A stretch of 32,000 nucleotides of DNA, taken from positions 1,890,001 through 1,922,000 of the forward strand of contig NZ_CP047931.1 in NCBI RefSeq assembly GCF_014280175.1. Direction: 5' to 3'. Shown in pieces: positions 1 through 14,794 of the stretch (position 1 is its first letter; each line of letters opens with the position of its first letter). The notes beneath the pieces were generated by a model that was not told the DNA's origin, ran no database searches, and saw nothing but the letters and a program-made list of their open reading frames with translations. Source of the DNA: Synechococcus sp. A15-28 (lineage in GTDB: Bacteria; Cyanobacteriota; Cyanobacteriia; PCC-6307; Cyanobiaceae). The translations under genes and the position numbers were made by a program.

Positions 1-2892
1 GATCTTGAGGAGGTCTGGAGCATCGGCCGCGAGGAGAAGCCAGAGCTGGCCCGCAGTGTGGTGACAAGCCCAGTCCCCCAGGAGCTCAGAAACCGTGGTG
101 TTGAAGGCTTATCGCTCCGTGGTGAATTCGGTCGCTGGCTGAAGGCACGCGAACGCTGGCTCTCGGCAGAAGACCTCTACCGAACCCTGAAATGGAAGGA
201 CGACCTCTACCAAGAGGTGATGGGTCACATCCTCGAGATGCTGTCGGCATGGGGCCTTGTGAAGACCGTGGACGTGCGGCTTGGCCGCAAGGCTCGTGAG
301 GTGATGCAAGGTTGGCGCCTCAACAGCACTGCTCTGCGTTGGACTCTGGTGGACCCGGAATCACCACCTCAGGACCGCTACGCCGCGTGTTTGGAACAAG
401 TGCGGCAGAACAGTGGGCGACGTGGGCCGGTCAACCCCTACTTCCGAAGTCTCTACGCCGACCTCGCCCATCTGATCGCAACAGAAGGCCGACCATTCCT
501 GCAGACGCTGTCCGCACGGGAGCACACAGCCCAAGTGGATGCGAGTGAGCGCGAACGACGGGAAGATGACTTCCGCAGTGCTGCCCTGCGGCTGATGTAC
601 TGCTCACCCACGATGGAATTGGGCGTTGATATTTCATCGCTCAACACTGTTTACATGCGCAATGTGCCGCCCACGCCGGCGAACTATGCGCAGCGCAGCG
701 GACGCGCCGGCCGTAGCGGGCAACCAGCTCTGGTGTTGAGCTATTGCGGTGCCACCTCACCCCACGACCAGTACTTTTTTGCGGATCCAGTGCGGATGGT
801 GGCGGGTGCTGTAAGTGCTCCAACGCTGGAATTGGCCAATGAAGAGTTGCTCAAGGCCCACTTCCGGGCGCTTTGGCTGGCAGCCACTCGGCAGCGCCTG
901 CCCGGGAAGGTGAAGGAGCTGGTGAACATCAGTGCCCCAGGGCGGCCAGTTCAAGCAGAGCTGATGGAGGCCCTCTCCAGGGATGAGGCCTACCGCTCAG
1001 CCCAGGCTGATTGCCAGGCCATCGTTGACGACCTGATCGAGAAGCAATGCCTCGGAAGCACGCCACCGCCATGGCTCACAGGCAGCTGGCTAGAAGCGAT
1101 CACCCATGGCGCCGCGCTGGATTTCGAGGCCGCGCTCAGCCGCTGGCGTGAGCTTCTTGAGGCAGTGGATGGTCAGATCAACCAGGCACTCAAAGATCTG
1201 GGGAACCACGCCATCAGCGAGCGGGAGCGTCTGGCCGCCGACACCCGCCTCAAAGCAGCACGAATGCAACAACAGTTGCTGCTGGCGGATAAGCCAGGAA
1301 GCGGCAACAGCAACAACGACTTCAGCACCTATCGCTACCTGGCAAGCCAAGGCTTCATGCCGGGGTACAACTTCCCGCGTCTGCCGCTGATGGCGTACAT
1401 CCCTGGCACACGAGAACAAGTGGGCGGCGGCACTTACATCACTCGCCCGCGGTTTGTCGGCATCAGTGAATTCGGTCCCCACTCACTGATCTATCACGAG
1501 GGGAACACCTACAAGGTGAAAGGTGCACTGCTGGGGTTGCAGGACAACGCGGCTGCAGCCGGATCAGCCACCCTCGCCACGCAGGACGCCTTGGTGTGTG
1601 GGGCCTGCGGCCATGCCCATCTCGGTAATGCCGCTGAATCAGAACTGTGTTGCCACTGCGGCACACCGCTGAAGCTGCATCCCGAGGGCAAAGCCGTTCG
1701 GATCCCAAAGCTGTATCAAATCGAGCAGGTCACCACGAGGAGAGCTGATCGGATCACCTCCGACGACGAAGAACGGCAACGCCTCGGCTATGAGCTGATC
1801 ACCACCTACGAATTCCCCAAGGACAACGGGGTGGTGAAAGTGGCGAAGGCCCAGGTGAGCTGCGAGGGGCAGCCGTTACTGGAGCTCAGCTACGCACCAG
1901 CTACGCAGATCAGCCGGGTGAACCTCGGCTGGCGGCGGCGGGAGAACAAAAACGACATGGGCTTCCCGATCCACCCGATCAACGGACAGTGGGGCGGCGA
2001 GAAAGACATGCGTGGCGATGCGGCCGACGACGACGGCCCAGAAGTGGGCTTCGTGAAGATCACGCCCTACGTGCAGGACCGCAAAAACGCATTGTTGGTT
2101 CGCTTCCTCGGGGAATGGGAGCCGCAACAGCTGGTGAGCGTGAAGAGCGCGATCAAACGGGGCATCGAAGTGGCATTTCAGCTCGATGGCAGTGAGGTGG
2201 CAGCTGAGCTGATGCCCAACGAAGAATCAGCAACGGCGCTGCTGCTCTATGAATCAGCAGAAGGTGGTGCGGGCGTTCTAAGCCGACTGGTGGAAAGCGC
2301 CAGCGCTTTGCAAGCCGTGGCCAAAACCGCCCTCGAGATTTGCCACTGGAGTTGGGACGGCAAGGTGCCCGCCCTCGAATCCCAATTGATCAACTCAGAT
2401 CCCGACTGTGAGGCGGGCTGCTACCGCTGCCTGCTCGGTTATCACAACCAACGCGATCACGACCTGATTGATCGCCAGCTCACCGAGCTCAAACAAGTTC
2501 TGCTCGATCTGGCGCGCTGTGAACTGGTGGGCCAGGGCGGAGTGGATAGCCGCAGCGCTTTGCTGGAGCGGCTCAAGGGGCTAGCCGGCAGTGGTCTGGA
2601 AAGGCTCTGGCTCGACACCCTTTACCGGCATGGCCACACGCTTCCTGACAACGCTCAACAGGAGGTGCCGGGTCACTACGTCACCCCAGACTTCACCTAC
2701 AAAGAGGCTTGTGTTGTGGTGTTCATCGATGGACCCCATCACGAGAAACCACTGCAGCAACGGCTGGACCAGCAGAAGCGCCAGGGCCTGATCGATGCAG
2801 GGATCTCGGTTGTGGTGTTTACCCAGGACACCACTAGTTGGCCTGAGGTTTTAAGCGAATACAGCTGGTTGTTTGGTGAGGGGAAAGGTTGA
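1..2892 (+). CDS. SF2 helicase (C-terminal half) fused to a DUF1998/MZB-type zinc domain and a C-terminal DUF559/Vsr-like endonuclease-fold domain. It is DrmA+DrmB-like or DruE-like. The 5' end lies outside the window.
   Basis: Frame 1 is open from nt 1: DLEEVWSIGREEKPELARS precedes the GTG at 58, so track ORF 58..2892 is 5'-truncated by the window. Helicase motifs V/VI are TMELGVDISSLNTVYMRN and QRSGRAGRSG (nt ~691-720). The Cys clusters CGACGHAH..CCHCG and DPDCEAGCYRCLLGYHNQRDHDLIDR (nt ~2398-2475) fit the DUF1998 signature as I remember it. The last ~100 aa (TPDFTY..VVVFIDGPHHE..RLDQQKRQGLIDAGISVVVF) look like a DUF559/Vsr-type PD-(D/E)xK domain. Confidence 0.8.
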   Translation, partial: DLEEVWSIGREEKPELARSVVTSPVPQELRNRGVEGLSLRGEFGRWLKARERWLSAEDLYRTLKWKDDLYQEVMGHILEMLSAWGLVKTVDVRLGRKAREVMQGWRLNSTALRWTLVDPESPPQDRYAACLEQVRQNSGRRGPVNPYFRSLYADLAHLIATEGRPFLQTLSAREHTAQVDASERERREDDFRSAALRLMYCSPTMELGVDISSLNTVYMRNVPPTPANYAQRSGRAGRSGQPALVLSYCGATSPHDQYFFADPVRMVAGAVSAPTLELANEELLKAHFRALWLAATRQRLPGKVKELVNISAPGRPVQAELMEALSRDEAYRSAQADCQAIVDDLIEKQCLGSTPPPWLTGSWLEAITHGAALDFEAALSRWRELLEAVDGQINQALKDLGNHAISERERLAADTRLKAARMQQQLLLADKPGSGNSNNDFSTYRYLASQGFMPGYNFPRLPLMAYIPGTREQVGGGTYITRPRFVGISEFGPHSLIYHEGNTYKVKGALLGLQDNAAAAGSATLATQDALVCGACGHAHLGNAAESELCCHCGTPLKLHPEGKAVRIPKLYQIEQVTTRRADRITSDDEERQRLGYELITTYEFPKDNGVVKVAKAQVSCEGQPLLELSYAPATQISRVNLGWRRRENKNDMGFPIHPINGQWGGEKDMRGDAADDDGPEVGFVKITPYVQDRKNALLVRFLGEWEPQQLVSVKSAIKRGIEVAFQLDGSEVAAELMPNEESATALLLYESAEGGAGVLSRLVESASALQAVAKTALEICHWSWDGKVPALESQLINSDPDCEAGCYRCLLGYHNQRDHDLIDRQLTELKQVLLDLARCELVGQGGVDSRSALLERLKGLAGSGLERLWLDTLYRHGHTLPDNAQQEVPGHYVTPDFTYKEACVVVFIDGPHHEKPLQQRLDQQKRQGLIDAGISVVVFTQDTTSWPEVLSEYSWLFGEGKG

Positions 2893-2926: not shown

Positions 2927-5896
2927 ATGACCCTTTCAACTCTTACCGCAAGTCCGGTCGACATCCCGAGCCCCGGTTCGATCGTGAAGGTGCGCGGGCG
3001 TGAGTGGATCGCCCTGCCACAGAGCAGCACTGAGAAGCAGGAGCAGGTGCTCAAACTTCGGCCCCTGGGAGGTGGAGATCAGACGATCGCCACCTTGTAT
3101 TGGCCGCTGGAGGGCGCAGCGGTGAAGCCGGCCAGCTTCGATCCGCCGGATCCAGCCCAAAGTGGCTCACAAAGTTCGGCGTTGCTGCTGCGGGATGCCC
3201 TGCTGCTCAAACTCCGCGCTGGCGCAGGGCCGTTCCGCAGCCTCGGCAATGTGGCCCTGGAGCCACGGCCCTACCAGCTGGTGCCGTTGTTGATGGCGCT
3301 GAAGCAAGCCGTCACCCGGGTGCTGATCGCCGATGAGGTGGGGCTTGGCAAAACCGTGGAGGCGTTGCTGATCGCCCGGGAGCTGTTGGATCGCGGCGAG
3401 ATCCGCCAGATCACCGTGATCTGCCCACCACACCTCTGCGAAAAATGGCGAGTCGACATGACCGGCCAGTTCAACCTCGCCGCAGAGGTGGTTCGTCCTG
3501 GTACCGCCCAGAAGCTGGAGCGAGGGCTGCCGGCGGGCAAGTCGATCTTCGATGTGATCCCGTTCACCGTGGTAAGCCTTGATTGGATCAAGAGCGATCG
3601 CAACCGGGAGAGCTTCCTGCGCAGTTGCGGTGAGTTCGTGATCGTTGATGAAGCGCACACCTGCGCGGCGCGCAAAGGTGGCGGACGCCAACAGCGCTTT
3701 GAACTGCTGCGTGGGTTGTCGGCCCAGCCCGATCGACATCTGGTGCTGCTCACGGCCACACCCCACAGCGGCGATACCGAAGCGTTTGACAACCTTCTAG
3801 CGCTGCTGGACCCGAAATTCTCCGGCTTGAGCGAGATGCCGGAAGGTCAACGGCGCAAGGACCTGCGCGATGACCTGGGCAACTACTTCGTGCAGCGGCG
3901 CCGGCAAGATCTCAAGGAGGAATGGGGCACCAACGGCGCCGACTTCCCGGACCGGGAAACACGGGAGGCGGAGTACAAGCTCTCGGGCGATTGGGCTGAG
4001 CTGTTTCACGACGTGCTCGGTTACGCCAAGGATCTGGTGCAACGCAGTGCCGGTGAGAGCAAGCTGCGACAGCGCATGAGCTGGTGGGCAGCTCTGGCGC
4101 TACTGCGCTGCGTGAGCAGCAGTCCGGCAGCGGCATCCGCCTCGTTGCGAACAAAGTTGCTCAACCTGCAAAGCGACACCAAAGGTGATCGCGACCGGGA
4201 TGACAACCAAGTTGCCGACGACCTGGAAGCCATGGCTGCCCTGGCGGTGCTGGATGGAGCCGACGAGGGATTCAGTGGAGAAGAAGCAGCACCCGGTGCT
4301 GATCTGGCCATTGCCGAAGACGAGGAGCAACTCCAGGATCTGATCGCTCGAGCCGATCTCCTGCGCGGCAAGGCACACGACCCCAAGCTCAAGCAGCTGA
4401 TCAAGGAGCTGAATGCCTTGCTCAAGGAAGGCTTTCGCCCGGTGATCTTCTGCCGTTTCCGGCCGACGGCGTATTACCTCGCCGAGCAGCTCAAAGAGGC
4501 ACTGCCAAAGCGCAGCCACGTGGTGACGGCGGTCACCGGTGATCTGCCACCAGAAGAACGCGTCTTGCGCATCCAGGAGCTGGAAGCTGAGGTCGCCAAC
4601 GAGAAAGTCCCGGTATTGGTGGCCACCGACTGCCTGTCGGAGGGGATCGACCTGCAGCACACCTTTGATGCGGTGGTGCATTACGACCTCTGCTGGAACC
4701 CCACCCGCCATGAACAACGGGAGGGCCGGGTGGACCGCTTCGGGCAGGCGCGAACAGCTGTTCGGGCGCTGATGTTGCACGGCGGCAGCTCCAATCCCGT
4801 CGACGATCGGGTGCGCACGGTGATCCTTGAAAAGGAGAAAACGATCCGCAAGGAGCTGGGGGTGAGCGTGCCGATCCCCGGCAATGCCAACTCAATCACC
4901 CAAGCCGTCCTCAGCAACATCCTGCAAGGACCAGCCCAGACCATTCAGGGGAGCTTTGATCTCGAGCTTGCGGGAGACACCACGACGCAATTGGCACTTG
5001 ACGCGACGATCGATGCTGAATGGACGAGTGCCAAAGACAACGCCAAGAAGAACCAGGCGATCTTTGCCCAACGGAGCCTCAAACCAGAGGAGGCGCTCGG
5101 CGAGTGGGAGCGGATGAAGGAGTCGTTGGGGAGTGAAGACGCCGTCGAGCGATTGGTGGTGAATGCCAGCCGGCGGCTCAACCTCCCAATCGGCCCCATC
5201 GGTGCAAGCCCCGGAACCTGGGAGCTGGATCTCAGCCGACTGCAAGACGACCGCACGGCCCTGCGGGAGCGCCTGCGCAATCACGACCTGGAGGGCAGGT
5301 TGCGCCTGAGCTTCCGCTCACCCGCTCAGGCTGGAGGCCAACTGCTCAGCCGCTCCCATCCGCTGGTGGTGGAACTTGCTGACTTTGTGGCCGAGCGTGC
5401 CCTCAGCGGCCTGGAACCCGAGTTGGCGGCTCGGGCCTCGGTGATTCGCACCAAAGCCGTGAGCCGCCGCACCCAGTTGCTGGTGCTGCGGCTGCGGCAT
5501 CAGCTGCATCAAGACCGTTGGACCGGGAATGGCTACGACGCACTCCCCGATCTGCTCGTGGAGGAATGCCTCACGGTGGAGGTCAAGGAGCAAAGCGTTG
5601 AACCGCTGGAGGGAGCCACCGCACTGGAACTGCTCGAAGCGGCACCCACGGGCAACGTGGACCCTGGCCAACGCCAGCAGTGGCTGAAGGATGCCGTCGC
5701 TGGTCTTGATGCCTTGCAACCGGCACTCAAGGCTCTGGCTGAACGGCGGGCCCAATTAGCAGAAGACGACCACCGCCGCGTCCGCGAAGCCTCCTTGCGC
5801 CGCGGTGAATCGCTGCGGATGCGCTTCAACTGCGAACCCGCCCCGGCCGTGGATGTGATCGGCCTGTTCCTGCTGCTTCCTGCCCCAACCCTTTGA
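2927..5896 (+). CDS. SNF2-family (SF2) helicase/ATPase, DISARM DrmD-like
   Basis: 989-aa ORF with GGAGG about 9 nt upstream of the ATG at 2927. A full motif set is present: I ADEVGLGKT (nt ~3329-3355), II VIVDEAH (nt ~3638-3658), III LLTATPHSG, V VLVATDCLSEGIDLQ, VI HEQREGRVDRFGQ. It starts 34 nt after the upstream gene. Confidence 0.88.
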   Translation: MTLSTLTASPVDIPSPGSIVKVRGREWIALPQSSTEKQEQVLKLRPLGGGDQTIATLYWPLEGAAVKPASFDPPDPAQSGSQSSALLLRDALLLKLRAGAGPFRSLGNVALEPRPYQLVPLLMALKQAVTRVLIADEVGLGKTVEALLIARELLDRGEIRQITVICPPHLCEKWRVDMTGQFNLAAEVVRPGTAQKLERGLPAGKSIFDVIPFTVVSLDWIKSDRNRESFLRSCGEFVIVDEAHTCAARKGGGRQQRFELLRGLSAQPDRHLVLLTATPHSGDTEAFDNLLALLDPKFSGLSEMPEGQRRKDLRDDLGNYFVQRRRQDLKEEWGTNGADFPDRETREAEYKLSGDWAELFHDVLGYAKDLVQRSAGESKLRQRMSWWAALALLRCVSSSPAAASASLRTKLLNLQSDTKGDRDRDDNQVADDLEAMAALAVLDGADEGFSGEEAAPGADLAIAEDEEQLQDLIARADLLRGKAHDPKLKQLIKELNALLKEGFRPVIFCRFRPTAYYLAEQLKEALPKRSHVVTAVTGDLPPEERVLRIQELEAEVANEKVPVLVATDCLSEGIDLQHTFDAVVHYDLCWNPTRHEQREGRVDRFGQARTAVRALMLHGGSSNPVDDRVRTVILEKEKTIRKELGVSVPIPGNANSITQAVLSNILQGPAQTIQGSFDLELAGDTTTQLALDATIDAEWTSAKDNAKKNQAIFAQRSLKPEEALGEWERMKESLGSEDAVERLVVNASRRLNLPIGPIGASPGTWELDLSRLQDDRTALRERLRNHDLEGRLRLSFRSPAQAGGQLLSRSHPLVVELADFVAERALSGLEPELAARASVIRTKAVSRRTQLLVLRLRHQLHQDRWTGNGYDALPDLLVEECLTVEVKEQSVEPLEGATALELLEAAPTGNVDPGQRQQWLKDAVAGLDALQPALKALAERRAQLAEDDHRRVREASLRRGESLRMRFNCEPAPAVDVIGLFLLLPAPTL

Positions 5897-5899
5897 GCC

Positions 5900-8800
5900 A
5901 TGGCCCGCACCACCGCCACCGTCAGCTTTCAGGCACTCGAACTCAAAGGCAGCCTGCTTCCGGCATCCCTGCTTGAGGAGGTGTCCAAGTTCAGCCGCCC
6001 GAAGGAGCTTCTGTTGGAGCCGAAGGACTACGGCTTGGGCAAAGGCGAAGGCTTGCGGGAGCGGATCGATGCCGCCTGGGTGCTCACCAAAGAACTGTGG
6101 GAGGAGTACACCGATCTGAGCGATCGGGCGGGGAAGAGCATTGCAGGGCAGCACTTCGGTACCCGCTTGCTCAAGGAGGTGTTCGGCTGGAGGAGCACCC
6201 AACCCTGCAACGGCTGGCAGCAGGGCGAATCGCACTATCCGATCAACGCCCGCGCCTTTGATGGCGCGGTGCCCGTAATCCTGCGAGGGCTCGACCCAGA
6301 CGATCTCGATCGTGGCAGTGCCCAGTTCGGCCAGGAGGGGCGGAAGCGATCGCCCCATAGCTGCCTGCAGGAATGCCTCAACGCCGACGACGATGCGAAT
6401 TGGGGTGTGCTGCTCAGCGGCGATCGGCTGCGGCTGTTGCACGACAACCCCTCGCTGGTGAAACCTGCGTATCTGGCTGCCGATCTTGAGCTCTTGATCG
6501 AAGGCGGGCTGCACGCCGAATTCGCCGTGCTCTGGTTGCTGCTCCACTCCAGTCGTTTTCAGCACCCCCAAACGGGCAGCTGTGTTCTCGATGACTGGAA
6601 ACAACAGGCGGAAGCCTCCGGTGAACGGGTGCTCGGGGCCTTGCGCGGCGGCGTGCAGAGCGCCTTGGAATCACTGGGCTGGGGCTTCCTCAATCACCCA
6701 AGCAATGGCGAACTGCGGGAGGCGTTGCGAAGCGGACAACTCAGCCGCCAGCAGTTCCACGAGCAGCTGCTGCGCTTGGTCTATCGGTTCCTGTTCCTGT
6801 TCACCACAGAAGATCGCAACCTGCTTTTCCCCCGCGAAGTCGACAAGACTGACGCACGCCGGCGGATCTACCAGGAGGGCTACAGCGTCAGCCGGCTGCG
6901 GGAGCTGGCGATCAAGCGCAGTGCCTATGAAGGGGACTACGGCGATCTCTGGGAGCTGCAGCGGCTGGTGTTCCAGCAGCTGAGCATTGGCAACTCACCG
7001 CTCGGTCTGCCGGGCCTGGGCGGATTGTTCAGCCTGGAGCAATGCCCAGATCTGCAGGCCGCGGAGCTCTGGAATGGGCCCTTGCTGCGGGCGATCAAAG
7101 CGATCGGCTGGTTCGACGCCGACGGCAGCTTCACCCGGGTGCGCTACCGCGATCTCAACACTGAAGAGCTGGGCAGTGTGTATGAGGGCCTGCTTGAACT
7201 GCATCCCCAGCTGGAGCCGCAGGGCAGCCAATGGCAGCTCAGCTATGGCGGTGGTGCCGGCAGTGATCGCAAAACCACCGGCAGCTACTACACACCCGAT
7301 GCCTTGGTGCAGGAGCTGATCAAGAGCGCTCTGATCCCGGTGATCGACGACCGGCTCAGCAAGGCCCATGGCCAAGCGGAGCAGGAACAGGCTCTGCTGA
7401 ATATCAGGGTGATCGACCCGGCCTGCGGGAGTGGCCACTTCCTGTTGGCGGCGGCTCGGCGCTTGGCAGTGGCCCTCGCCCAGGTGCGCGCAGGCGATGA
7501 CCAACCCAGCGAAGACGACCGCCAGCACGCCCTACGCGATGTGGTGGCCCATTGCATCTACGCGGTGGACAAAAACCCAATGGCGGTGGAGCTGTGCAAA
7601 GTGGCGCTGTGGATCGAAGCGATTGATCCCGGCAAGCCGCTGAGCTTTCTGGATGCACACATCCAGTGCGGGGATTCACTGGTGGGGGTCTTCGACCCGA
7701 AGGTGTTGGAGGAAGGCATCCCGGATGGGGCCTACAAGCCACTCACCGGTGACAACAAACCGGTCTGCACGAGCCTGAAGAAAGAGAACGCCGCAGCACG
7801 CAAGACCATCAGCCGGCGCGGCTCCAATCGGGGCATTCAAGGGAGCTTGGCTCTCAGCGGCACGCAACCCCGCAGCCAGGGGCAACAGGACTTGCAGGCG
7901 ATCGAGGCCATGCCAGAAACCACCCTGGCAGAAACGGCGTCCAAGCAGGCTGCCTACGCCCAATGGCTCTCTGATCGAGGCCAGGATCCAGAGACGTTGG
8001 CTGCTGATCTCTACACAGCAGCGTTTTTCCTAGCGAAAACAAGCGATTCGCGCCCCACGGTGCCCACCACAGAGCACCTACTCAAACTCCTCGCTGGTCA
8101 ACCCGTTGATGAAGCGATGGAAGAGGCCGTTGTTGAGGCGGCCCAGAACTTCCGCTTCTTCCATTGGCACCTGCGTTTTGGCGAGGTGATGGAGCAAGGC
8201 GGCTTTGATTGCGTCCTGGGCAATCCGCCTTGGGAGCGAATTAAAATCCAAGAAAAGGAATTTTTTGCTCAGAAAGACGGCGAGATTGCCAAAGCAAAAA
8301 ACAAAAGTGAGCGAGCGAAGCTTCTCGAAGAGTCACTTTCAGGGAATCGCGGGAGACTTGCACTGGCTGCCGCGAATGAGTTTTTTGTAGCAAGGCGAAG
8401 CGCAGAGGCATCAGGCTTGATCGCGCGCTCTGCCCTTTTCCCTCTAACGAGCAAGGGCGACATAAACCTATACGCCTTATTCGCCGAACGATGCTGCCAA
8501 GCCTTGATATCCAGGGCAGGCATGTGCGGCGTAATCGTGCCAACAGGTATCGCCACAGATCTACCGTGCGCCGACTTTTTCTTTGATCTTATTAAAGACA
8601 GAAGAATCATATCAATCCTTGACTTTCGCAACAAAGGATTCTTCCCAGGCGCCGCTGGCGCACAAGGCAACCGCTTCTGCTTATTTACATTTGGGTCAAA
8701 AGATATCTCCAGACAAGACACACTTCTTGCATACAGGCTCGAGTCAATTGACGAATTACGTGACGAGCGCAGATTCTCTCGAATTACAGCTGATGACATA

Positions 8801-9820
8801 ACACTACTCAATCCCTCCTCAAGAACATGTCCAGTCCTAAGATCAAAGTTTGATTTTGAGCTAACAAAAAAGATCGCTCTTAGCAATACAAACCTAGATT
8901 CAAGCATCAGCGACTGGGATATTAACCTCGGGAGAATGTTTGATCTAGCCAATGACAGTGACTTGTTCAAGCAGGACGATCACAGCCTTGACATACCTGA
9001 CAATCACCTTCGACTTTACGAAGCCAAAATGGTTCATCAATTTGATCATCGTTTTGGCGATTACTCGCTAATTAAAAACCCGAAGCCACAGACGGTCAGG
9101 CAGCTTCCAAATCCATCTATAGATCTTTTAGCTGAAACGGGTTACATGGTCAGAGGAGCTTACTTAGTTGATCGGGAACACGTGGAATCATGGCTGGACG
9201 ATCAAGGATGGACGAGAAAGTGGCTTTTAGGCTGGAGAGATATCACCAGCGGCCTTGATGAAAGAACTGTAATCGCGTGTGCGTTACCTGTAGCCGCTTA
9301 CGGAAATACTCTCCCGCTGATGATGCCAAGACACACGGCAGTTGAAAGCTGCATTCTTCTCGGCCTTCTTAATTCGATTACATGTGATTACATTGCCAGG
9401 CAAAAAGTCGGTGGAGTCCACCTGACTTTCTTCATCCTTAGACAACTCGCAATACCTTCTCTTTATGGCATACCTAAAGGCTTAGGTTTCGAGTTGGCGA
9501 AGCGTGTAGCCGGCATTAGCTGCCATAGCAAAGATATGTTCGAACTTAGAGAAGAAATATCCTCTGATCTGCAACTGACTCTTATTCCCTTTGGGCACCC
9601 GCGGCTTGTTGCACGGGCTGAGATTGAAGCCATTGCTGCCAAGATCTACGGCCTAACAAGGGATGAGTTGCGTTACATCCTTGATCCCACTGATGTAATG
9701 GGGCCCGATTACCCTAGTGAGACCTTCAGGGTGCTCAAGAAAAATGAAATACGTGAGTTTGGTGAATATCGAACTCAACGGTTAGTACTCGAGGCGTGGG
9801 ATCGCCTATTCGGGAACTGA
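5900..9820 (+). CDS. Large gamma-class N6-adenine DNA methyltransferase (Eco57I/PglX/DrmMI-like) with a long C-terminal region, presumably for target recognition
   Basis: 1306-aa ORF starting 3 nt after the SNF2 stop. The AdoMet motif I is VIDPACGSGHFLLAAARRL (nt ~7409-7465). The catalytic motif IV is GNPPWERI (NPPW = nt 8222-8233). The size and motif order match type IIG/BREX/DISARM adenine methylases. Confidence 0.88.
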   Translation: MARTTATVSFQALELKGSLLPASLLEEVSKFSRPKELLLEPKDYGLGKGEGLRERIDAAWVLTKELWEEYTDLSDRAGKSIAGQHFGTRLLKEVFGWRSTQPCNGWQQGESHYPINARAFDGAVPVILRGLDPDDLDRGSAQFGQEGRKRSPHSCLQECLNADDDANWGVLLSGDRLRLLHDNPSLVKPAYLAADLELLIEGGLHAEFAVLWLLLHSSRFQHPQTGSCVLDDWKQQAEASGERVLGALRGGVQSALESLGWGFLNHPSNGELREALRSGQLSRQQFHEQLLRLVYRFLFLFTTEDRNLLFPREVDKTDARRRIYQEGYSVSRLRELAIKRSAYEGDYGDLWELQRLVFQQLSIGNSPLGLPGLGGLFSLEQCPDLQAAELWNGPLLRAIKAIGWFDADGSFTRVRYRDLNTEELGSVYEGLLELHPQLEPQGSQWQLSYGGGAGSDRKTTGSYYTPDALVQELIKSALIPVIDDRLSKAHGQAEQEQALLNIRVIDPACGSGHFLLAAARRLAVALAQVRAGDDQPSEDDRQHALRDVVAHCIYAVDKNPMAVELCKVALWIEAIDPGKPLSFLDAHIQCGDSLVGVFDPKVLEEGIPDGAYKPLTGDNKPVCTSLKKENAAARKTISRRGSNRGIQGSLALSGTQPRSQGQQDLQAIEAMPETTLAETASKQAAYAQWLSDRGQDPETLAADLYTAAFFLAKTSDSRPTVPTTEHLLKLLAGQPVDEAMEEAVVEAAQNFRFFHWHLRFGEVMEQGGFDCVLGNPPWERIKIQEKEFFAQKDGEIAKAKNKSERAKLLEESLSGNRGRLALAAANEFFVARRSAEASGLIARSALFPLTSKGDINLYALFAERCCQALISRAGMCGVIVPTGIATDLPCADFFFDLIKDRRIISILDFRNKGFFPGAAGAQGNRFCLFTFGSKDISRQDTLLAYRLESIDELRDERRFSRITADDITLLNPSSRTCPVLRSKFDFELTKKIALSNTNLDSSISDWDINLGRMFDLANDSDLFKQDDHSLDIPDNHLRLYEAKMVHQFDHRFGDYSLIKNPKPQTVRQLPNPSIDLLAETGYMVRGAYLVDREHVESWLDDQGWTRKWLLGWRDITSGLDERTVIACALPVAAYGNTLPLMMPRHTAVESCILLGLLNSITCDYIARQKVGGVHLTFFILRQLAIPSLYGIPKGLGFELAKRVAGISCHSKDMFELREEISSDLQLTLIPFGHPRLVARAEIEAIAAKIYGLTRDELRYILDPTDVMGPDYPSETFRVLKKNEIREFGEYRTQRLVLEAWDRLFGN

Positions 9821-9821
9821 T

Positions 9822-11048
9822 ATGGCGGTCGTCTCTCTGCCAGCAAGAGCTGCCATTCACCAAGTAGTTACAGCTCTGCGATCCGCAGATTCACTCCATC
9901 CCAACGGCGACACGGTTTTCCTCTCTTTTGCCGATGTTCCGTCGATCGACGTCTTGGCTTTCCTCGGTGCCTGGGGCCTGATGACTCGGAGCTCTGGCAC
10001 CACCATCAAACTGCGGGGAGAAGCCAAAACACTCGCGGCGCTTCAGCTGATGGGATTCCATCAGCTTCTCGATATTCCACCTTCAAGCACCAAAGCCAAC
10101 GTTCAACCTGCCAAGGCATCCACGGTTGGCATGCTGCCCCTCTCACCAATTGCCACGGAAGAACAGCAATACGAAGCCGTTGATGCCATCTGCGCTATCG
10201 CCCTGGCCGCCATCGACAACGCCGCCGCGTTCATCCCAGCCCTGGAATGGCTGGCCAACGAAATCCTCGGCAACATCCTTACCCACGCAGCATCAGAAAC
10301 ACCCGGCGTGGTCTGCGCTCAGTACCGCCCCAAGCAGCAACGCTTCGAGATCGGCATCTGCGACATGGGTCGGGGGCTGCTGGGATCCTTACAACCCGCG
10401 TTCCCAGAGGTACGTAGCTACGGCCAGGCAATTGACAAAGCGATCGAGCGCGGCGCGACTCGTGATCCCGCTATCGGTCAGGGCAATGGCATGGCCGGCT
10501 CCTTCGAGATCGTGCGCCTCAACGGCGGCACCTATCAGATCTGGACCGGTGATGTCGTCTACGAACTCAACAAAGGCAAGCGCCGCCCCGGTTTCCAGGC
10601 CATGCCGTCTGTCCTCGGGACAGGAGTGATGTTCTCGCTCGACACCAGCAAACCCGTTGATCTCGCCAGCACCTGGATCGCCTCCAATTCAGGGGTGGAA
10701 TGCCTCTTCCTCAATCTCCTCACGGAATCCGCCAGCGACAGCGGACTCGATGTCGCCGCTGAATGTCTCCACACCGGTGGGCGCGCCCCCGCCAAGCTGC
10801 TGCGCCGGAAAATCCAGGGGTTGCTGCCTGCCATGGAGGGCGAACCGCTGATCCTTGATTTCTCAGGTGTGAAATCAGCAGCCAGCAGCTTCCTCGATGA
10901 GCTGCTTGGTCGGCTCGCTGCAGAAGACCCGCGCGGGCAGGCGATCTTCGATGGAGCAGTGCGCATTCAAGGGATGAATCCCACTGTGCAAGCCATGGCC
11001 AATGTGGTGGTGGCGCAGCGGTTGAGGGGGTCGGTGCAAGCCCAATAA
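9822..11048 (+). CDS. GHKL (histidine-kinase-like / SpoIIAB-like) ATPase with a C-terminal STAS-like DUF4325-type domain and a possible N-terminal STAS-like domain
   Basis: 408-aa ORF whose ATG lies 1 nt after the methylase stop (TGAtATG). Bergerat-fold boxes are present: N box EWLANEILGNILTHA, G1 ICDMGRGLLG (nt ~10362-10380), G2 GQGNGMAGSF (nt ~10477-10500). The C-terminus LILDFSGVKSAASSFLDELLGRL matches my memory of DUF4325. The N-terminus (FLSFADVPSIDVLAFLGAW..LQLMGF) resembles an anti-sigma-antagonist/STAS fold. Confidence 0.8.
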   Translation: MAVVSLPARAAIHQVVTALRSADSLHPNGDTVFLSFADVPSIDVLAFLGAWGLMTRSSGTTIKLRGEAKTLAALQLMGFHQLLDIPPSSTKANVQPAKASTVGMLPLSPIATEEQQYEAVDAICAIALAAIDNAAAFIPALEWLANEILGNILTHAASETPGVVCAQYRPKQQRFEIGICDMGRGLLGSLQPAFPEVRSYGQAIDKAIERGATRDPAIGQGNGMAGSFEIVRLNGGTYQIWTGDVVYELNKGKRRPGFQAMPSVLGTGVMFSLDTSKPVDLASTWIASNSGVECLFLNLLTESASDSGLDVAAECLHTGGRAPAKLLRRKIQGLLPAMEGEPLILDFSGVKSAASSFLDELLGRLAAEDPRGQAIFDGAVRIQGMNPTVQAMANVVVAQRLRGSVQAQ

Positions 11049-11066
11049 ACCTTGCCCATTAGGGCA

Positions 11067-11393
11067 TCACTCCCCCGCCTGAATCTCACGCACCACCTCA
11101 TCGATCTGATCACTCAGATCAATCTCACCGTTCTGGCCAGCCAGCTCAGCAAAACAGCGCCCCTGTGGCAACAAACGGCTCTGCGCTGAACCCACCGCCG
11201 CGTTGAAGCTCTTGTTCAGGCGATTCAAATGGCTGCCGATGTCGTTGAACTTGTGGAGCAAGATCAAAAAGTCGACCAGAGCAAATCCGAAATTAAAGAG
11301 CCCTTCAGGAACACAACTCCACTCCAGATCCATTACACAAAGCATCAACAAAAGATGCCTGATCAAGGTAATAACAGGACCAGAAAGAGCCAA
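11067..11393 (-). CDS. Hypothetical small protein with a hydrophobic N-terminal half (possible membrane protein)
   Basis: 108-aa ORF starting 1 nt downstream of the stop of the 11395..11775 gene, so the two form a likely two-gene operon. Hydrophobic stretches are PVITLIRHLLLMLCVM and GLFNFGFALVDFLILL. I recognise no family. Confidence 0.45.
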   Translation of the reverse strand: MALSGPVITLIRHLLLMLCVMDLEWSCVPEGLFNFGFALVDFLILLHKFNDIGSHLNRLNKSFNAAVGSAQSRLLPQGRCFAELAGQNGEIDLSDQIDEVVREIQAGE

Positions 11394-11394
11394 A

Positions 11395-11775
11395 TCACTC
11401 CTCCTTGCGATTTTTTATAGGCAACCAATCCTCTGTGTAGGTGGTCTTCCACCTTGCTTTTCTCCACCTTGCCAACATGACCTCTCCCCCATACCTCTTG
11501 ATGAGGTCATGGAGCGTTATGCCACCAAGGTCACAACCATCAACGGGACAAGCAAGGATAAAGGTATCGCCTTTACGGGCATATCCCATAACCGCTTTGT
11601 GCTTCCCGCACCTTGGGCACACACACCTGTATGTTTCTTTCCCATTGAAGTTGTCTCTTCGTTTAATCCCATTCAATCTGTGAGACATCTCCAAAAAGAA
11701 TGGATACTCAATATGCAAATCTGTTCTGAACTTGTATCCCATAAGATTACTCCTATTGTTACTGATTGCTAACAT
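11395..11775 (-). CDS. Hypothetical zinc-ribbon protein (CHC2 primase-like Zn-finger pattern), phage/island-type
   Basis: 126-aa ORF in AT-rich DNA. The segment CVCPRCGKHKAVMGY..FILACPVDGCDLGGITLHDLI resembles the CPxH/C..CxxCxxxG pattern of primase-type zinc fingers. The competing plus-strand 189-aa ORF (11203..11772) has a non-protein-like composition. Confidence 0.55.
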   Translation of the reverse strand: MLAISNNRSNLMGYKFRTDLHIEYPFFLEMSHRLNGIKRRDNFNGKETYRCVCPRCGKHKAVMGYARKGDTFILACPVDGCDLGGITLHDLIKRYGGEVMLARWRKARWKTTYTEDWLPIKNRKEE

Positions 11776-11828
11776 TCAGCTGTATTTAACACCCAAACTC
11801 TTATAGATAGAGTGGGCATGTGATTTTT

Positions 11829-11885
11829 GGACTCTTAAAGAACTTAGAGGCCCTTAAGGGTCGCCATAAAGAGTCCCCTTAAAGG
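11829..11885. promoter_or_regulatory. Nested inverted repeats with three CTTAA(A/G)G copies in a divergent intergenic region; candidate operator
   Basis: GGACTCTT (11829-11836) pairs perfectly with AAGAGTCC (11869-11876). The perfect palindrome CCCTTAAGGG (11851-11860) lies inside that stem. CTTAAAG, CTTAAGG and CTTAAAG start at 11834, 11853 and 11878. Confidence 0.35.
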
Positions 11886-12009
11886 CCAAAAGACATAAAT
11901 ACAAAAAGAATGTCATTTAAAATGTAGATACCTTGTGCATCTAAGACGTATTCCAAAGAGAGGCACTACTGCCCTTGTTATCATCCATAGCAAATCTATT
12001 TACCAAATC

Positions 12010-12183
12010 ATGAGCATTAAGACACCAACTAAGCAAGATACTTTTACTATCTCCTACCAAAGACAAGAAGCAAAGAAGGTGATAGGAATGGAATATGAGT
12101 TAATGGAGCACTTTGGTTTTAACCGATCACAACTCCATAAGAACCTAGTCAGAGATGCCTACAGAAAAATGTCGATGCTTTGA
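12010..12183 (+). CDS. Hypothetical small protein, possibly ribbon-helix-helix (CopG/Arc-like)
   Basis: The track ORF is 11935..12183 (GTG start). I prefer the ATG at 12010, giving 57 aa. The pattern FTISYQ (beta-strand) followed by EAKKVIGMEYELMEHFGFNRSQLHKNLVRDAYRKM (two helices) is RHH-like. The assignment is weak. Confidence 0.4.
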   Translation: MSIKTPTKQDTFTISYQRQEAKKVIGMEYELMEHFGFNRSQLHKNLVRDAYRKMSML

Positions 12184-12213
12184 TCAAAATAATACCGAAG
12201 TCACGAACAACAA

Positions 12214-12519
12214 TCAGTAGAGTTGGATATGAATGATATGCAGCTGATCTTCTATACTGTTGTAATCCTGAATTTTTTGCATTAGAGGAATCATACTTTC
12301 CTCTTTTACATTCCACGTAGTTGTAACGCCGCCATTACTCCCCTGCCATTCAGCACCATCACCAAGACTTTTCATAATATCGTCAATATCATCCCTTTCA
12401 TCCAGAAAGATCTTTTGACGCTTCTCTTCGTCAGCAAAAACGGCAATTAAATCTTCGGTCTTGTTGTCATAATCACAATAAAGACAAAGGCAATAGGTCC
12501 TGGAATTCGTTTTAGACAT
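12214..12519 (-). CDS. Hypothetical acidic protein (island cargo)
   Basis: 101-aa ORF in AT-rich DNA, convergent with the 12010..12183 gene. I recognise no motif. Confidence 0.45.
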   Translation of the reverse strand: MSKTNSRTYCLCLYCDYDNKTEDLIAVFADEEKRQKIFLDERDDIDDIMKSLGDGAEWQGSNGGVTTTWNVKEESMIPLMQKIQDYNSIEDQLHIIHIQLY

Positions 12520-12850
12520 AATAAATAATTAGAAATACGCTTGGTATCGAAATTTACCGATTCAATCTCGAAAGAAACTTGCTAGAAATCAATTGCAGAC
12601 AAGAGCGCCCGAGGAGCGAAGGCTTAGAGGGCAAAAGGTATTTAGTTTGTATCAAGCGGAAGGATGAATCCTTTATTTCGATGAGTTGATTATAGCACTT
12701 TTTCACTAAAAGAGCAACATTCAAACCTTCATGCTTACCCATTGGCCTTCTTCCTACTTGTTAGTCCTGGGCAATGACTCCATAGCAATCCATCTATTCA
12801 GCGTTAAAAGAAGCACCCCTTATCCAGGTCAGTGAGGCGAAGGATAATGC

Positions 12851-13228
12851 TCAAGGCACCATCCAGTCGTCTTCTCCCATCTCAACGCCTGCAAGGAGTT
12901 CAGCCGCAGCAGCGATCTTTCCTTGATCACTGATCCAGTGAGCGGCAGCATCAAACTGCCGCTTGTTCATGCGCTCAAGACCTACCTCCCTGTGCAGATC
13001 GCTGAACTCTTGGGCACAACGCAGCATCAGGCATTTGAGCAGCAGGTAGTGGTCGTCAATGGAGGAGTCCTCGAATACCTCCCTCACGATCCCGTTGGCG
13101 ACTGAGCTGTAGTACTGCTTGGTCGTTTTTTTATATGCCTTTTTCTTAGCAGCAGACTTCTGTGCTTTACGAAGCAGGTGCTCCAGGTCCTTGTCGGATG
13201 GAACGAGGTTGTCGTCTGCACTTCTCAT
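12851..13228 (-). CDS. Hypothetical protein translationally coupled to the integrase (Lys-rich N-terminus)
   Basis: The track ORF is 12851..13285. The internal ATG at 13228-13226 overlaps the integrase stop (minus-strand ATGA, plus-strand TCAT at 13226-13230... tca 13228-13230), giving 125 aa that begin MRSADDNL. Confidence 0.5.
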   Translation of the reverse strand: MRSADDNLVPSDKDLEHLLRKAQKSAAKKKAYKKTTKQYYSSVANGIVREVFEDSSIDDHYLLLKCLMLRCAQEFSDLHREVGLERMNKRQFDAAAHWISDQGKIAAAAELLAGVEMGEDDWMVP

Positions 13229-14499: not shown

Positions 14500-14511
14500 G
14501 AGACTTCTCCC

Positions 14512-14700
14512 TTACGCTACGCAAGAGAGACGCTTCAAATAATCGTCAATATCGTCAACAGCCCAACGCACCATCCGCGAACCAATCTTGAGAGGGCGAG
14601 GGAAATCCCCCGCATCCATGCTTCGATAAATCGTGGAGCGAGACATGGAGACCAGGACACTAACCTCTTTCAAGGTCAGCAACTTCTTGTTCAGATTCAT
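14512..14700 (-). CDS. AlpA-family helix-turn-helix regulator/excisionase
   Basis: The track ORF is 14512..14766. I place the start at the ATG at 14700, giving 62 aa (MNLNKKLLTLKEVSVLVSMSRSTIYRSMDAGDFPRPLKIGSRMVRWAVDDIDDYL), which is typical AlpA/HTH_17 length and pattern. The longer version would overlap the predicted -10 box. Confidence 0.8.
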   Translation of the reverse strand: MNLNKKLLTLKEVSVLVSMSRSTIYRSMDAGDFPRPLKIGSRMVRWAVDDIDDYLKRLSCVA

Positions 14701-14765
14701 AATTAGGACAAGTAAATATAAATTAGCCGGAAACTTTATTGCAATCGATCCGACATTTCTTCTCA

Positions 14766-14794
14766 ATTATATCAATATCTGTCAAAATATGCAA
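14766..14794 (-). promoter_or_regulatory. Near-consensus sigma70-type promoter for the alpA-int-orf125 operon
   Basis: The minus strand reads TTGCAT (14794-14789), a 17-nt spacer ending in TGA (an extended -10 TGn), then TATAAT (14771-14766). It sits about 66 nt upstream of the alpA ATG. Confidence 0.5.

Follow-up and report, generated by a model that had tools for sequence, protein, structure and literature searches.

Genes and features of the locus

The stretch of DNA analysed here (the window, 32 kb) comes from a marine Synechococcus-type picocyanobacterium and opens within a DISARM-like defence operon. One gene of this operon encodes a large methylase, whose conserved front part (head) is followed by a segment with a different history (tail). 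The features are as follows.

1-2892, + strand: 3' half of a large helicase gene, Helicase_C and MZB/DUF1998, DrmA+DrmB-like or DruE-like (Pfam; PADLOC DruE, 1.5e-53)
2927-5896, + strand: SNF2 helicase gene, DrmD/DpdE-like, upstream operon partner of the methylase (Pfam SNF2-rel_dom/Helicase_C)
5900-9820, + strand: intact gene of a DrmMI-like gamma-class N6-adenine DNA methyltransferase, 1306 aa (ORF; Pfam; PADLOC)
5900-8236, + strand: conserved head, aa 1-779 (identity to relatives; GC 0.63, GC3 0.76)
7415-7441, + strand: motif I (DPACGSGHF; motif coordinates)
8222-8233, + strand: motif IV (NPPW; motif coordinates)
8237-9619, + strand: hypervariable cassette, aa 780-1240 (low identity; AF2/Foldseek; GC 0.47, GC3 0.45-0.46)
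8240-8269, + strand: sharp 5' recombination boundary, 2-12 codons past NPPW (nucleotide identity; blastn; pairwise breaks)
aa ~785-950, within the cassette: post-motif-IV helical insert and remaining Rossmann strands
aa ~960-1145, within the cassette: beta-rich putative target-recognition domain (TRD)
9620-9817, + strand: conserved C-terminal end, aa 1241-1306 (...YGLTRDELRYILDP...EAWDRLFGN; protein conservation ~0.75)
9822-11048, + strand: downstream operon gene, 408 aa, HATPase-like and STAS-like DUF4325 (Pfam DUF4325, 2.5e-11)
9822-10060, + strand: 3' shoulder where the divergent low-GC tract fades out, ~240 nt at the start of the DUF4325 gene (nucleotide identity; shared low GC)

The large helicase is cut by the window start; it has 1773 aa in relatives, and its DNA is 96-97% identical to that of the loci L036, L038 and L040. 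The SNF2 helicase matches DpdE (6.7e-190) and DrmD (1.5e-85) of PADLOC, as well as DISARM_DrmD of NCBIfam (1e-99, under the curated cut-off). The methylase is matched by the Pfam families Eco57I, N6_Mtase and MmeI_Mtase, and its best PADLOC match is DrmMI (9e-64). An earlier, sequence-only reading of this DNA had placed NPPW at 8222-8233 in an unbroken frame; both hold, the motif being aa 775-778. The head comprises an N-terminal domain of ~450 aa and the SAM-binding/catalytic half as far as NPPWE. The cassette carries a match to the profile TIGR02987 (profile positions 112-458), and its last part is the start of a C-terminal helical bundle. Conservation returns in the final 66 residues (aa 1241-1306), which makes the variable part internal.

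The composition break

The G+C content falls in the back half of the methylase gene. Per 60 nt, it was counted by hand as 45, 34 and 36 at 7441-7500, 8101-8160 and 8161-8220, then as 25, 27, 19 and 27 at 8221-8280, 8281-8340, 8581-8640 and 9061-9120, and as 42 at 10201-10260 in the next gene; our recount was identical for all eight. GC3 is ~0.72-0.84 up to codon ~675 and ~0.32-0.58 beyond codon 776. A two-change-point likelihood fit of GC3 over the four operon genes places the low-GC3 tract at 7972-10187, with a GC3 of 0.49 inside and 0.74 outside (2ΔlnL = 156); by 2-lnL support, the 5' edge falls within 7912-8242 and the 3' edge within 9896-10208. The GC3 sag starts already upstream of the NPPW break. 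The drop had been described as running from near NPPW to the stop codon. It is real, but it does not end at 9820, as the tract reaches ~75-390 nt into the next gene.

It may be asked whether the amino-acid composition of a K/N/I/F-rich recognition domain alone gives this drop. FYMINK residues indeed rise from 15.5% in the head to 25.0% in the tail, and GC1 falls family-wide from 0.70 to 0.54. However, GC2 is unchanged (0.44 vs 0.43), third positions fall most, and synonymous sites carry most of the drop. With the tail's amino acids encoded according to the codon preferences of the conserved operon genes, a GC3 of 0.740 would be expected, against an observed value of 0.449 (z = -14.8). Because GC3 itself falls (~0.74 to 0.49), amino-acid content fails to explain the low GC; as the main cause it is rejected by the GC3 test, and as the sole cause it is most improbable.

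Head and tail among relatives

The head shares 72-98% amino-acid identity with 96 full-length relatives, while the tail shares 22-44% with the same relatives. Across the family, mean pairwise identity is ~0.8 for the head and 0.26-0.58 for the cassette. Over 4560 pairs, head identity and tail identity are uncorrelated (r = 0.15); thus, one pair has identical heads (100%) with tails at 79%, and another has heads at 77% with tails at 91%. The sequence-only reading had looked to relatives for near-identical N-terminal parts joined to differing C-terminal modules, and this is what they have (97-98% vs 23-42%). What follows NPPW evolves as a module of its own, bounded by a recombination breakpoint at the catalytic motif.

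For residues 780-1240, identity to any protein found does not exceed 46%. This best value comes from tail-only searches, which covered database proteins up to ~1.75 times the query length. Full-length proteins were covered by the 96 relatives and by scanning 241 M metagenome records at the DNA level, where the best relatives reached 42-43%. No donor taxon can be named for the tail from relatives at such distances. The conserved C-terminal end has an amino-acid identity of 70-85%, distant orthologues included; its DNA is only ~80% identical to that of relatives, and its GC3 is low (0.52). The identity of this end tracks that of the variable segments (r 0.67-0.75) and not that of the head (0.18). 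The C-terminal end travels with the cassette.

Breakpoints and exchange between alleles

The head DNA is 93-95% identical to that of L036, L038 and L040, and this identity is lost at 8240-8269, up to ~12 codons past NPPW. In sliding windows, nucleotide identity to these three closest relatives is at least 0.87 to 8239, 0.67-0.73 at 8240-8269 and 0.13-0.57 beyond; the blastn HSPs of all three stop at 8268/8269. A break at aa 775-784 was observed in 68 of 160 informative locus pairs, a count that overstates the events since pairs share history. The recovery of identity on the 3' side is gradual (9640-10060) and runs inside the next gene, where nucleotide identity is 0.70-0.88 over 9822-10060 against at least 0.9 further downstream. 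Relatives have the same low GC at positions orthologous to this shoulder.

Exchange can be followed in single pairs. L041 and L042 are without mismatch across ~970 nt upstream and 2949 nt of the gene (~3.9 kb, 100% identical); beyond, identity falls to 30-68% over aa ~1000-1180, the recognition core, and then returns to 73-93%. This pair shows a recent swap of the recognition core. L043 and L044 have heads of 60-80% nucleotide identity and are 88-98% identical from codon 541 through the gene end. The tails are themselves mosaic: 135 pairs have one sub-segment at least 85% identical and another at most 50%. Since nothing close to the tail of the window itself was found (at most 46%), this allele may have been resident for long instead of having arrived recently.

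Variability made within each genome, either by silent-cassette switching in the manner of hsdS shufflons or by repeat-mediated phase variation, is a very unlikely source of these alleles. The likeness to phase-variable mod and hsdS loci lies in the variable TRD only. Against it, no second copy of any tail part was found within the window at the protein or DNA level, and no inverted repeats are present in 7800-10400. The only direct repeat is a 10-nt exact seed, of which ~3 are expected by chance. The methylase gene has no simple-sequence tract, no invertase is adjacent, and the one recombinase present is an integrase that belongs to a different element.

Predicted fold of the tail

The AF2 model of the tail has a pLDDT of 90. 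With Foldseek, aa 741-1306 match M.BseCI, CamA, M.TaqI and PglX/BrxX (E ~1e-9 to 1e-7), with modest TM-scores of 0.44-0.49. M.TaqI, CamA and M.BseCI are the best fold matches (360-600 aligned columns). They share with the tail the order of motif IV, remaining Rossmann strands and C-terminal DNA-recognition domain, though sequence identity is 10-16%, and they are small orphan or Type II enzymes that lack the 450-aa N-terminal domain and the defence-operon context. The residue-level TRD boundary was taken from secondary structure, not from alignment. The tail is thus modelled as the catalytic lobe and recognition domain of an M.TaqI/CamA/PglX-type methylase, in agreement with the earlier placing of target-recognition determinants after motif IV. 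The motif that PglX uses in methylation as well as in defence is determined by its C-terminal domain (PMC11341690). By analogy, replacement of the cassette would alter the methylated DNA motif.

Origin of the low GC

The tail is AT-shifted against its own head in 33 of 33 GC-rich relatives and in all three low-GC cyanobacterial loci compared. In the first 31 GC-rich loci, mean GC3 goes from 0.81 in the head to 0.54 in the tail; in the three low-GC hosts, the tail has 0.22-0.30 and the head 0.31-0.39, the shift in one being just 0.03. A drop shared by GC-rich homologues had been put forward as a sign of amino-acid composition. It is shared, but the reason fails because the drop sits at synonymous sites. 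Low GC is a family-wide property of a non-homologous, accessory-like segment and was not left behind by one recent donor of AT-rich DNA.

The sequence-only reading had proposed that an AT-rich foreign donor recombined at NPPW; a single, recent event of this kind would have given a private chimeric module, possibly related to the integrase element nearby. The sharp 5' break and the lack of a close relative of the tail would fit such an event, and so would the composition, with a GC of 0.47 in the tail and 0.46 in the integrase module and a raw tetranucleotide correlation of 0.58-0.61. However, a hypervariable, GC3-reduced tail with the same head/tail discontinuity is present in every family member examined (33/33 and 3/3), and relatives share the low-GC shoulder at orthologous positions of the next gene. 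The likeness to the integrase module is one of shared low GC only: after GC normalisation, the tail correlates with the module at 0.48, no closer than the core genome (0.54) or the operon head (0.60), and tails of unrelated genomes match it equally well. The module itself is an integrative element in its own right and has rmuC, 1.2 kb downstream of the operon, as its insertion site. The private chimera is therefore largely refuted by the family-wide pattern and improbable.

The cause of the AT shift across the family may lie in import or in processes acting in place. Cassettes could have been imported repeatedly from lower-GC lineages or mobile DNA and not yet ameliorated, which is a tenable, if tentative, account. 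In GC-rich hosts, the GC3 of the tail does not correlate with that of the head (r = 0.07). At the C-terminal end, GC3 resembles that of the host (~0.8) in some loci and that of the tail (~0.5) in others, which is what imported tracts with differing end points would produce. Exchange between divergent backbones is directly seen, low-GC cyanobacteria are included in the wider family, and relatives of the TRD core occur in many phyla. On the other hand, the tails of low-GC hosts are lower still, and therefore tails scale with host class and do not make up a single pool; tails of GC-rich and low-GC hosts are only ~36-42% identical, and no close pair was found between them. Alternatively, and quite conceivably, divergent alleles may be unable to pair, which would let the segment and the flanks next to it escape homologous recombination and GC-biased gene conversion; or they may be under weaker codon selection. 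In either case, the universal AT-biased mutation pressure would lower GC3. The shift against the own head in every host, GC-rich or GC-poor, points this way, as do the GC3 sag that precedes the break and the grading of the dip into conserved flanks with reduced between-allele nucleotide identity (9640-10060), and so would the general tendency of accessory DNA to exceed its host in AT content. Yet only three low-GC loci were compared, one with almost no shift, GC-biased gene conversion in these organisms is an assumption, and the bimodal GC3 of the C-terminal end is explained less easily than by import.

Comparison with known systems

In the Type III mod genes of Haemophilus and Neisseria, a hypervariable part, read as the TRD, lies between conserved parts of one gene (Bayliss et al. 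2006, PMC1557822). Both mod and the present methylase have conserved partner genes, mosaic or recombinant alleles and cross-species exchange. However, mod is a beta-class enzyme acting with Res, while here a gamma-class DrmMI-like enzyme stands in a DISARM-like operon without repeat tract or phase variation. The cassette is also larger (~460 aa, including half of the catalytic lobe, vs ~200-250 aa), and a systematic GC3 deficit is documented for it here.

PglX/BrxX (PDB 8C45, 8Q56, 9EWZ; Went et al. 2024, PMC11341690), one of the proteins that match the tail best in structure, is also a large gamma-class N6-adenine methylase of methylation-based defence, with an N-terminal methylase part and the TRD in the C-terminal domain. 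Sequence likeness is confined to the SAM-binding region, and NCBIfam PglX models score far under cut-off. The partners here are SNF2, helicase-MZB and DUF4325 proteins, whereas BREX has PglZ/BrxC/BrxL. Specificity was changed by engineering in PglX (PMC11341690); here, natural allele exchange is documented.

As in Class 1 DISARM (Ofir et al. 2018; bioRxiv 10.1101/2021.12.28.474362), the N6-adenine methylase adjoins an SNF2 helicase (DrmD) and a DUF1998 helicase. The present operon differs in gene order, in lacking a PLD gene (drmC), in the fusion of helicase and DUF1998 as one protein and in extra genes (the DUF4325 protein; GmrSD_N in some relatives), and its methylase matches PF07669/PF02384 instead of PF13659. 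The DrmMI of Serratia methylates the non-palindromic motif ACACAG (bioRxiv 10.1101/2021.12.28.474362). In Type I, IIG and III systems of Helicobacter pylori, replacement of recognition domains between alleles with conserved flanks is reported to lead to strain methylome diversity (Furuta et al., PMC3077401, PMC3983042). From that 'domain movement', the present case differs in organism, enzyme family and system, and its exchange unit is the post-motif-IV catalytic lobe with the TRD and a shoulder into the next gene.

Proposed explanation

The tail is probably an allelic, recombinationally exchanged specificity cassette of a DrmMI-like methylase in a picocyanobacterial DISARM-like operon. Of the chimeric module first proposed, the exchangeability, the boundary at the catalytic motif and the TRD fold are retained, but not its being private, its AT-rich donor, its likeness to the integrase module or its end at the stop codon. 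The cassette would reach from just past NPPW to ~aa 1240, with a softer shoulder through the C-terminal end into ~240 nt of the next gene, and would hold what remains of the catalytic lobe together with the DNA target-recognition domain. The head, with the N-terminal domain and the SAM-binding catalytic half, is conserved and would evolve together with the operon. Many deeply divergent alleles exist, which homologous recombination would move between backbones through crossovers in conserved flanks; these are the region of NPPW at the 5' end of the cassette and, at its 3' end, the conserved C-terminal end or the next gene. Recombination takes place inside the cassette too.

A swapped cassette would lead to another methylated DNA motif and, therefore, to another discrimination of self and foreign DNA. 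In Class 1 DISARM, losing the methylases causes no autoimmunity, and protection rises with unmethylated motifs (bioRxiv 10.1101/2021.12.28.474362); these findings are counted in favour, as the system would tolerate swaps. Phage-driven diversifying or frequency-dependent selection would maintain the many alleles. Swapping of specificity by exchange of TRD alleles is already known from Type III mod, hsdS and PglX, and here it would operate in a DISARM-like system of picocyanobacteria.

Composition break inside the methylase gene

The adenine methylase belongs to a DISARM-like operon, whose members in the window are as follows.

58-2892: 3' half of a helicase cut by the window start, with Helicase_C (3.8e-12) and MZB/DUF1998 (8.6e-10)
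2927-5896: SNF2 helicase (Pfam SNF2-rel_dom, 5.9e-10)
5900-9820, plus strand: methylase (PADLOC DrmMI, 9e-64)
9822-11048: 408-aa HATPase-like/DUF4325 protein, also an operon member

The 1306-aa frame of the methylase is intact, and its NPPW motif lies at 8222-8233 (aa 775-778). A sequence-only reading of this DNA had described an abrupt loss of G+C at the motif and had suggested that what follows is a chimeric, AT-rich C-terminal module. Its eight 60-nt G+C counts were all exact on recount. At coarse scale, GC is about 0.61-0.66 up to 8100, 0.43-0.52 at 8101-9900, 0.56 at 9901-10200 and 0.63 beyond. The fall occurs mostly at third codon positions, with GC3 of 0.72-0.84 before codon ~675 and 0.32-0.58 past codon 776. 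A two-change-point likelihood fit to the GC3 of the four operon genes puts a low-GC3 tract at 7972-10187 (edge support 7912-8242 on the 5' side and 9896-10208 on the 3' side), with GC3 of 0.49 inside and 0.74 outside (2*deltaLnL = 156).

Amino-acid composition as the source of the drop is rejected. From the amino acids of the tail itself, combined with the codon preferences of the operon, a GC3 of 0.740 is expected, and 0.449 is observed (z = -14.8). GC2 is unchanged between the head (aa 1-779) and the tail (aa 780-1240). Together with the change-point fit, these results establish that the break is real, far above chance and free of an amino-acid effect. The drop was supposed to last to the stop codon; instead, the low tract runs past the stop into the next gene, and protein conservation returns in the last 66 residues of the methylase. 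Thus, the observation itself was confirmed, and the interpretation placed on it is supported in part.

A hypervariable segment within a conserved protein

Querying with aa 1-774 gave over 100 relatives of ~1290-1315 aa at 71-98% identity, and each half was compared by BLASTP to 96 full-length relatives. As had been anticipated, near-identical N-terminal parts carry differing C-terminal modules: heads at 97-98% identity occur with tails at 23-42%, and the ceiling for tail identity among the 96 is 44%. For WH 8020, HK01-R and the strain of the window, the figures are 95-97% for the heads and 31-41% for the tails. In an all-against-all comparison of 4560 pairs, head and tail identity are uncorrelated (r = 0.15); some pairs, for example, are 100% identical in the head and 79% in the tail, and others 77% and 91%. 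Mean pairwise identity in the 96 proteins is ~0.8 over aa 1-779, 0.26-0.58 over aa 780-1240 and ~0.75 over aa 1241-1305, with the step directly past NPPWE. The methylase, therefore, has a hypervariable segment flanked by conserved parts, as in allelic hypervariable-TRD methyltransferases. The tails are mosaics as well, since 135 pairs combine one sub-segment of at least 85% identity with another of at most 50%. Identity in the C-terminal end follows that of the variable segments (r 0.67-0.75) and not that of the head (0.18).

Relatives of the tail were also sought directly. Protein searches with the tail or the core (aa 960-1240) alone covered proteins up to ~1.75 times the query length, so that such domain-only queries miss long multidomain proteins, and the 1306-aa protein itself was not returned; metagenomes were, therefore, scanned at DNA level as well. 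The best identity was 46-48% in the protein searches and 42-43% in the scan, which used six 8-residue peptides of the variable segment against 241 million metagenome records. Outgroup tails match the variable region of the window at 36-42%, no matter whether their catalytic regions are 42% or 84% identical to its own. Neither the length-bounded protein searches nor the metagenome scan yielded a donor, and the tail of the window is, judged by its sequence, an orphan allele in the collections searched.

Breakpoints and exchange

Against WH 8020, HK01-R and a metagenome contig (L040), the blastn alignments of 93-95% identity all end at window 8268/8269. No alignment follows before ~9640, after which identity is ~80% to the gene end and reaches 86-90% within the downstream gene. 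A comparison in 30-nt steps gives identities of at least 0.87 up to 8239, 0.67-0.73 at 8240-8269 and random level beyond. The 3' side is graded, with ~0.8 at 9670-9820, 0.70-0.88 at 9822-10060 and at least 0.9 farther on; the relatives, too, have low GC where the downstream gene begins. Over 33 loci, the best 5' change-point falls at aa 775-784 in 68 of 160 informative pairs, which are not independent of one another; 43 others break upstream of aa 700, and the remainder are scattered within the tail.

Two pairs of loci are instructive. L041 and L042, which come from metagenomes with the consecutive JGI sample IDs 3300021092 and 3300021093, have no mismatch over ~970 nt upstream and 2949 nt of the methylase. 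They first differ at the equivalent of aa 988, with identity of 30-68% across aa ~1000-1180 and 73-93% from there on, a pattern that shows the recognition core to have been replaced recently, the tract running on in the 3' direction. The converse is seen in L043 and L044, where the heads are 60-80% identical in nucleotides and the sequence from codon 541 to the end is 88-98% identical. Identity comparisons and breakpoints alike indicate that the conserved and variable parts have been recombined, and their relationships appear incongruent.

Close to the two edges of the low-GC tract there is a 23-nt imperfect direct repeat (8319-8341 and 10063-10085) with 74% identity and the 10-nt exact seed AGCTTCTCGA. 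Chance alone should give about three such seeds in 2.6 kb; hence, the repeat is probably coincidental and was rejected as a crossover site.

Enzyme class and fold of the tail

The methylase carries motif I (DPACGSGHF, aa 506-514) upstream of NPPW, which is motif IV, and its Pfam matches are N6_Mtase, Eco57I and MmeI_Mtase. It is a predicted gamma-class N6-adenine DNA methyltransferase with the recognition domain C-terminal to the catalytic domain. The tail matches positions 112-458 of 523 in the profile of the Alw26I/Eco31I/Esp3I adenine-methylase family. Searching the PDB by sequence with the full-length protein gave only a marginal match to MmeI (E = 0.009), and a fold search was thus needed. 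An AlphaFold (AF2) model of aa 741-1306, built on a 109-sequence alignment, has a pLDDT of 90 and a pTM of 0.88. It places a helical insert after NPPW, followed by Rossmann strands, a beta-rich domain and a C-terminal helical bundle, with these limits in the model:

aa ~875-950: remaining Rossmann strands
aa ~960-1145: beta-rich domain

The Foldseek matches are M.BseCI, PglX/BrxX, CamA and M.TaqI (E 1e-9 to 1e-7, 360-600 columns, TM 0.35-0.49), all of them gamma-class adenine methylases carrying a C-terminal recognition domain. In PglX, it is the C-terminal domain that sets the motif for methylation and defence (PMC11341690). It is on the beta-rich domain that the core swapped between L041 and L042 (aa 988-1180) falls. 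We infer from the model that this domain would be the TRD, with residue limits drawn from secondary structure alone.

A fused restriction-modification enzyme of the Type IIG or MmeI-like kind was also considered. The PADLOC IIG and MmeI (5HR4) matches are limited to the methylase region, and Pfam, NCBIfam and PDB sequence searches detected no nuclease family in aa 1-450. This candidate was rejected, as these searches reveal no N-terminal endonuclease domain.

Origin of the low GC

Low GC is not private to the window, as the idea of a foreign module in this genome would have it. The variable region has a GC3 far under that of the head in all 31 first-analysed loci (means 0.54 vs 0.81, tail range 0.40-0.65), and four further GC-rich loci have the same pattern. 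In GC-rich hosts, tail GC3 bears no relation to head GC3 (r = 0.07). Three low-GC filamentous-cyanobacterial loci have tail and head values of 0.28/0.31, 0.22/0.37 and 0.30/0.39, and their tails are also far lower in GC3 than picocyanobacterial tails. The cassette is AT-shifted relative to its own flanks in every host examined, at a level that scales with host class, which argues against a single AT-rich donor pool. Two explanations of the shift remain. One is repeated import of unameliorated DNA; the other is decay in place, with divergent alleles escaping homologous recombination and GC-biased gene conversion.

The tail had also been likened to the AT-rich integrase module downstream of the operon (11049-14874). 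The two are indeed close in GC (0.47 and 0.46), with a raw tetranucleotide r of 0.58-0.61, but this similarity is generic. Tails of unrelated genomes give r of 0.10-0.68 with the module, in line with their own GC; after GC normalisation, the tail-module value of 0.48 is not above module-core (0.54) or module-head (0.60). The proposed link was, therefore, abandoned. The module holds the following features.

11070-11270, minus strand: rmuC remnant (3' part, 67 aa), 85% identical to aa 413-479 of HK01-R RmuC
13228-14499: integrase (phrog_1, 1e-23)
14512-14766: excisionase-like protein (phrog_66, 3e-10)

The AT-rich integrative element (11070-14874) appears to have truncated rmuC, and these features mark the module as an element separate from the tail, inserted into rmuC. 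The window contains no tRNA. Directly past the element, core-like GC (0.65-0.67) is back at 14975-15880, where a class-A beta-lactamase-family ORF lies on the minus strand (Pfam Beta-lactamase2, 5.4e-18).

Switching within the genome, by phase variation as in a phasevarion or by an invertible shufflon, was rejected, as it is accompanied by no silent copies, inverted repeats or SSRs: no SSR tract was found in the methylase gene, no inverted repeats in 7800-10400 and no second tail-like sequence within the 32-kb window.

Operon and its relation to DISARM

The tetranucleotide usage of the operon agrees with the remainder of the window (r = 0.92). The nearest relatives are those of the marine Synechococcus strains WH 8020 and HK01-R; after these come many from freshwater Cyanobium, Vulcanococcus and Synechococcus.

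The Class 1 DISARM set comprises drmA (PF00271), drmB (DUF1998, PF09369), drmC (PF13091), drmD (PF00176) and drmMI (PF13659) (bioRxiv 10.1101/2021.12.28.474362). The domains of the drmA helicase and of drmB both lie in ORF 58-2892, and in the relatives Helicase_C and DUF1998 are likewise fused in one 1773-aa protein. The top PADLOC model for the helicase is DruE, not DrmA. The SNF2 protein fits PADLOC DpdE (6.7e-190) better than DrmD (1.5e-85), and its NCBIfam DISARM_DrmD match (E = 1e-99, 335 bits) is under the cut-off of 610. The PADLOC DrmMI match spans aa 454-779 only, and the Pfam families of the methylase are PF07669, PF02384 and PF20473, not PF13659. The PLD gene (drmC, PF13091) is absent from the 10 ORFs scanned in the window, which begins mid-helicase, and from the gene tables of the relatives, which show GmrSD_N in its place. 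As the PLD gene is missing, the system is best described as DISARM-like and is not filed as canonical Class 1 DISARM.

The gene content varies between loci. WH 8020, HK01-R and L040 have a 1.96-kb GmrSD_N (DUF262) gene between the helicase and SNF2, which the window lacks at 2893-2957 (helicase stop 2892, SNF2 start 2927). It is present in 9 distinct fetched loci and absent from 16, including the window, and is thus a putative effector with a presence/absence polymorphism. The helicase-MZB protein shows, at its C-terminus, a weak match to DUF559, a Vsr-like endonuclease fold (window 2656-2832, aa 867-925; E = 0.004, under the Pfam cut-off), and this region could be a built-in nuclease of the PLD-less system. 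The methylase/DUF4325 junction is an insertion hot spot in the relatives. It holds a 494-aa WD40 beta-propeller gene in HK01-R (L038 13892-15376), a 138-aa ORF in L040 (13891-14307) and an 80-nt spacer in WH 8020 (L036 13949-14027); in the window, the genes abut (9820/9822).

The methylase can also sit in another operon context, as in L044 (1-4000), where it has no SNF2 upstream and its neighbours are an HsdR-like gene of Type I and some small unknown ORFs; the tail there is 96-98% identical to that of L043, which differs in gene context. In filamentous cyanobacteria (Nostoc, Microcoleus), the methylase has 830-920 aa, and a separate ORF of 370-500 aa lies before it (L045 4576-5775, L046 4131-5246, L047 4523-6013). 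This suggests either that the ~450-aa N-terminal domain is a gene fusion in picocyanobacteria or that the gene has been split in the filamentous form; short BLAST matches between the upstream ORF and aa 1-450 hint at homology. At L047 (1-3180), Tn7-like genes adjoin the methylase (TnsA-like, rve/Mu-transposase TnsB-like and TniB/TnsC-like ATPase), and the defence genes there may be transposon cargo. Four MAG contigs with the picocyanobacterial-type operon (L004, L015, L017 and L024) bear the names Chitinophagaceae, Pimelobacter simplex, Ca. Sulfopaludibacter or Pseudanabaena. GC at these loci is 0.60-0.65, and the heads show ~70-80% identity; the odd labels are probably due to mis-binning or mislabelling and not to cross-phylum transfer.

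Comparison with known systems and significance

In architecture and inferred dynamics, the methylase resembles the Type III mod alleles with their hypervariable TRD region (PMC1557822) and also the movement of TRD domains in H. pylori. By analogy with PglX (PMC11341690), the tail would have the specificity role of the C-terminal domain. Several features are particular to the present case: the DISARM-like operon of picocyanobacteria, a ~460-aa exchange unit that starts at motif IV and, therefore, includes half of the catalytic lobe, a sharp 5' edge with a graded 3' edge, and a synonymous AT shift universal across hosts. A literature search outside subscription journals found no prior description of a hypervariable DrmMI-like tail in picocyanobacteria.

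A sharp intragenic break in GC and GC3 need not, then, signal that foreign DNA was recently inserted in that genome. In the present case, it is the mark of a standing hypervariable cassette, AT-shifted in every lineage examined. The family also offers many natural recognition modules on a single conserved scaffold, a large library useful for tying TRD sequence to motif, as has been done for PglX by engineering. If the tails confer different motifs, the cassette would split close Synechococcus and Cyanobium strains into restriction or 'self' groups, with consequences for phage-host networks and for gene flow among picocyanobacteria of oceans and lakes.

Picocyanobacteria are among Earth's most abundant phototrophs. 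It is conceivable, though we consider it rather unlikely, that the methylase plays a major part, at strain level, in determining phage and DNA-uptake specificity. Otherwise identical co-occurring genotypes would then differ only by a swapped core, as in L041 and L042, dozens of deeply divergent alleles would be kept by negative frequency-dependent selection, and the AT shift, seen in GC-rich and GC-poor hosts alike, would be a natural experiment that could show bacterial segments excluded from homologous recombination to lose GC for want of GC-biased gene conversion.
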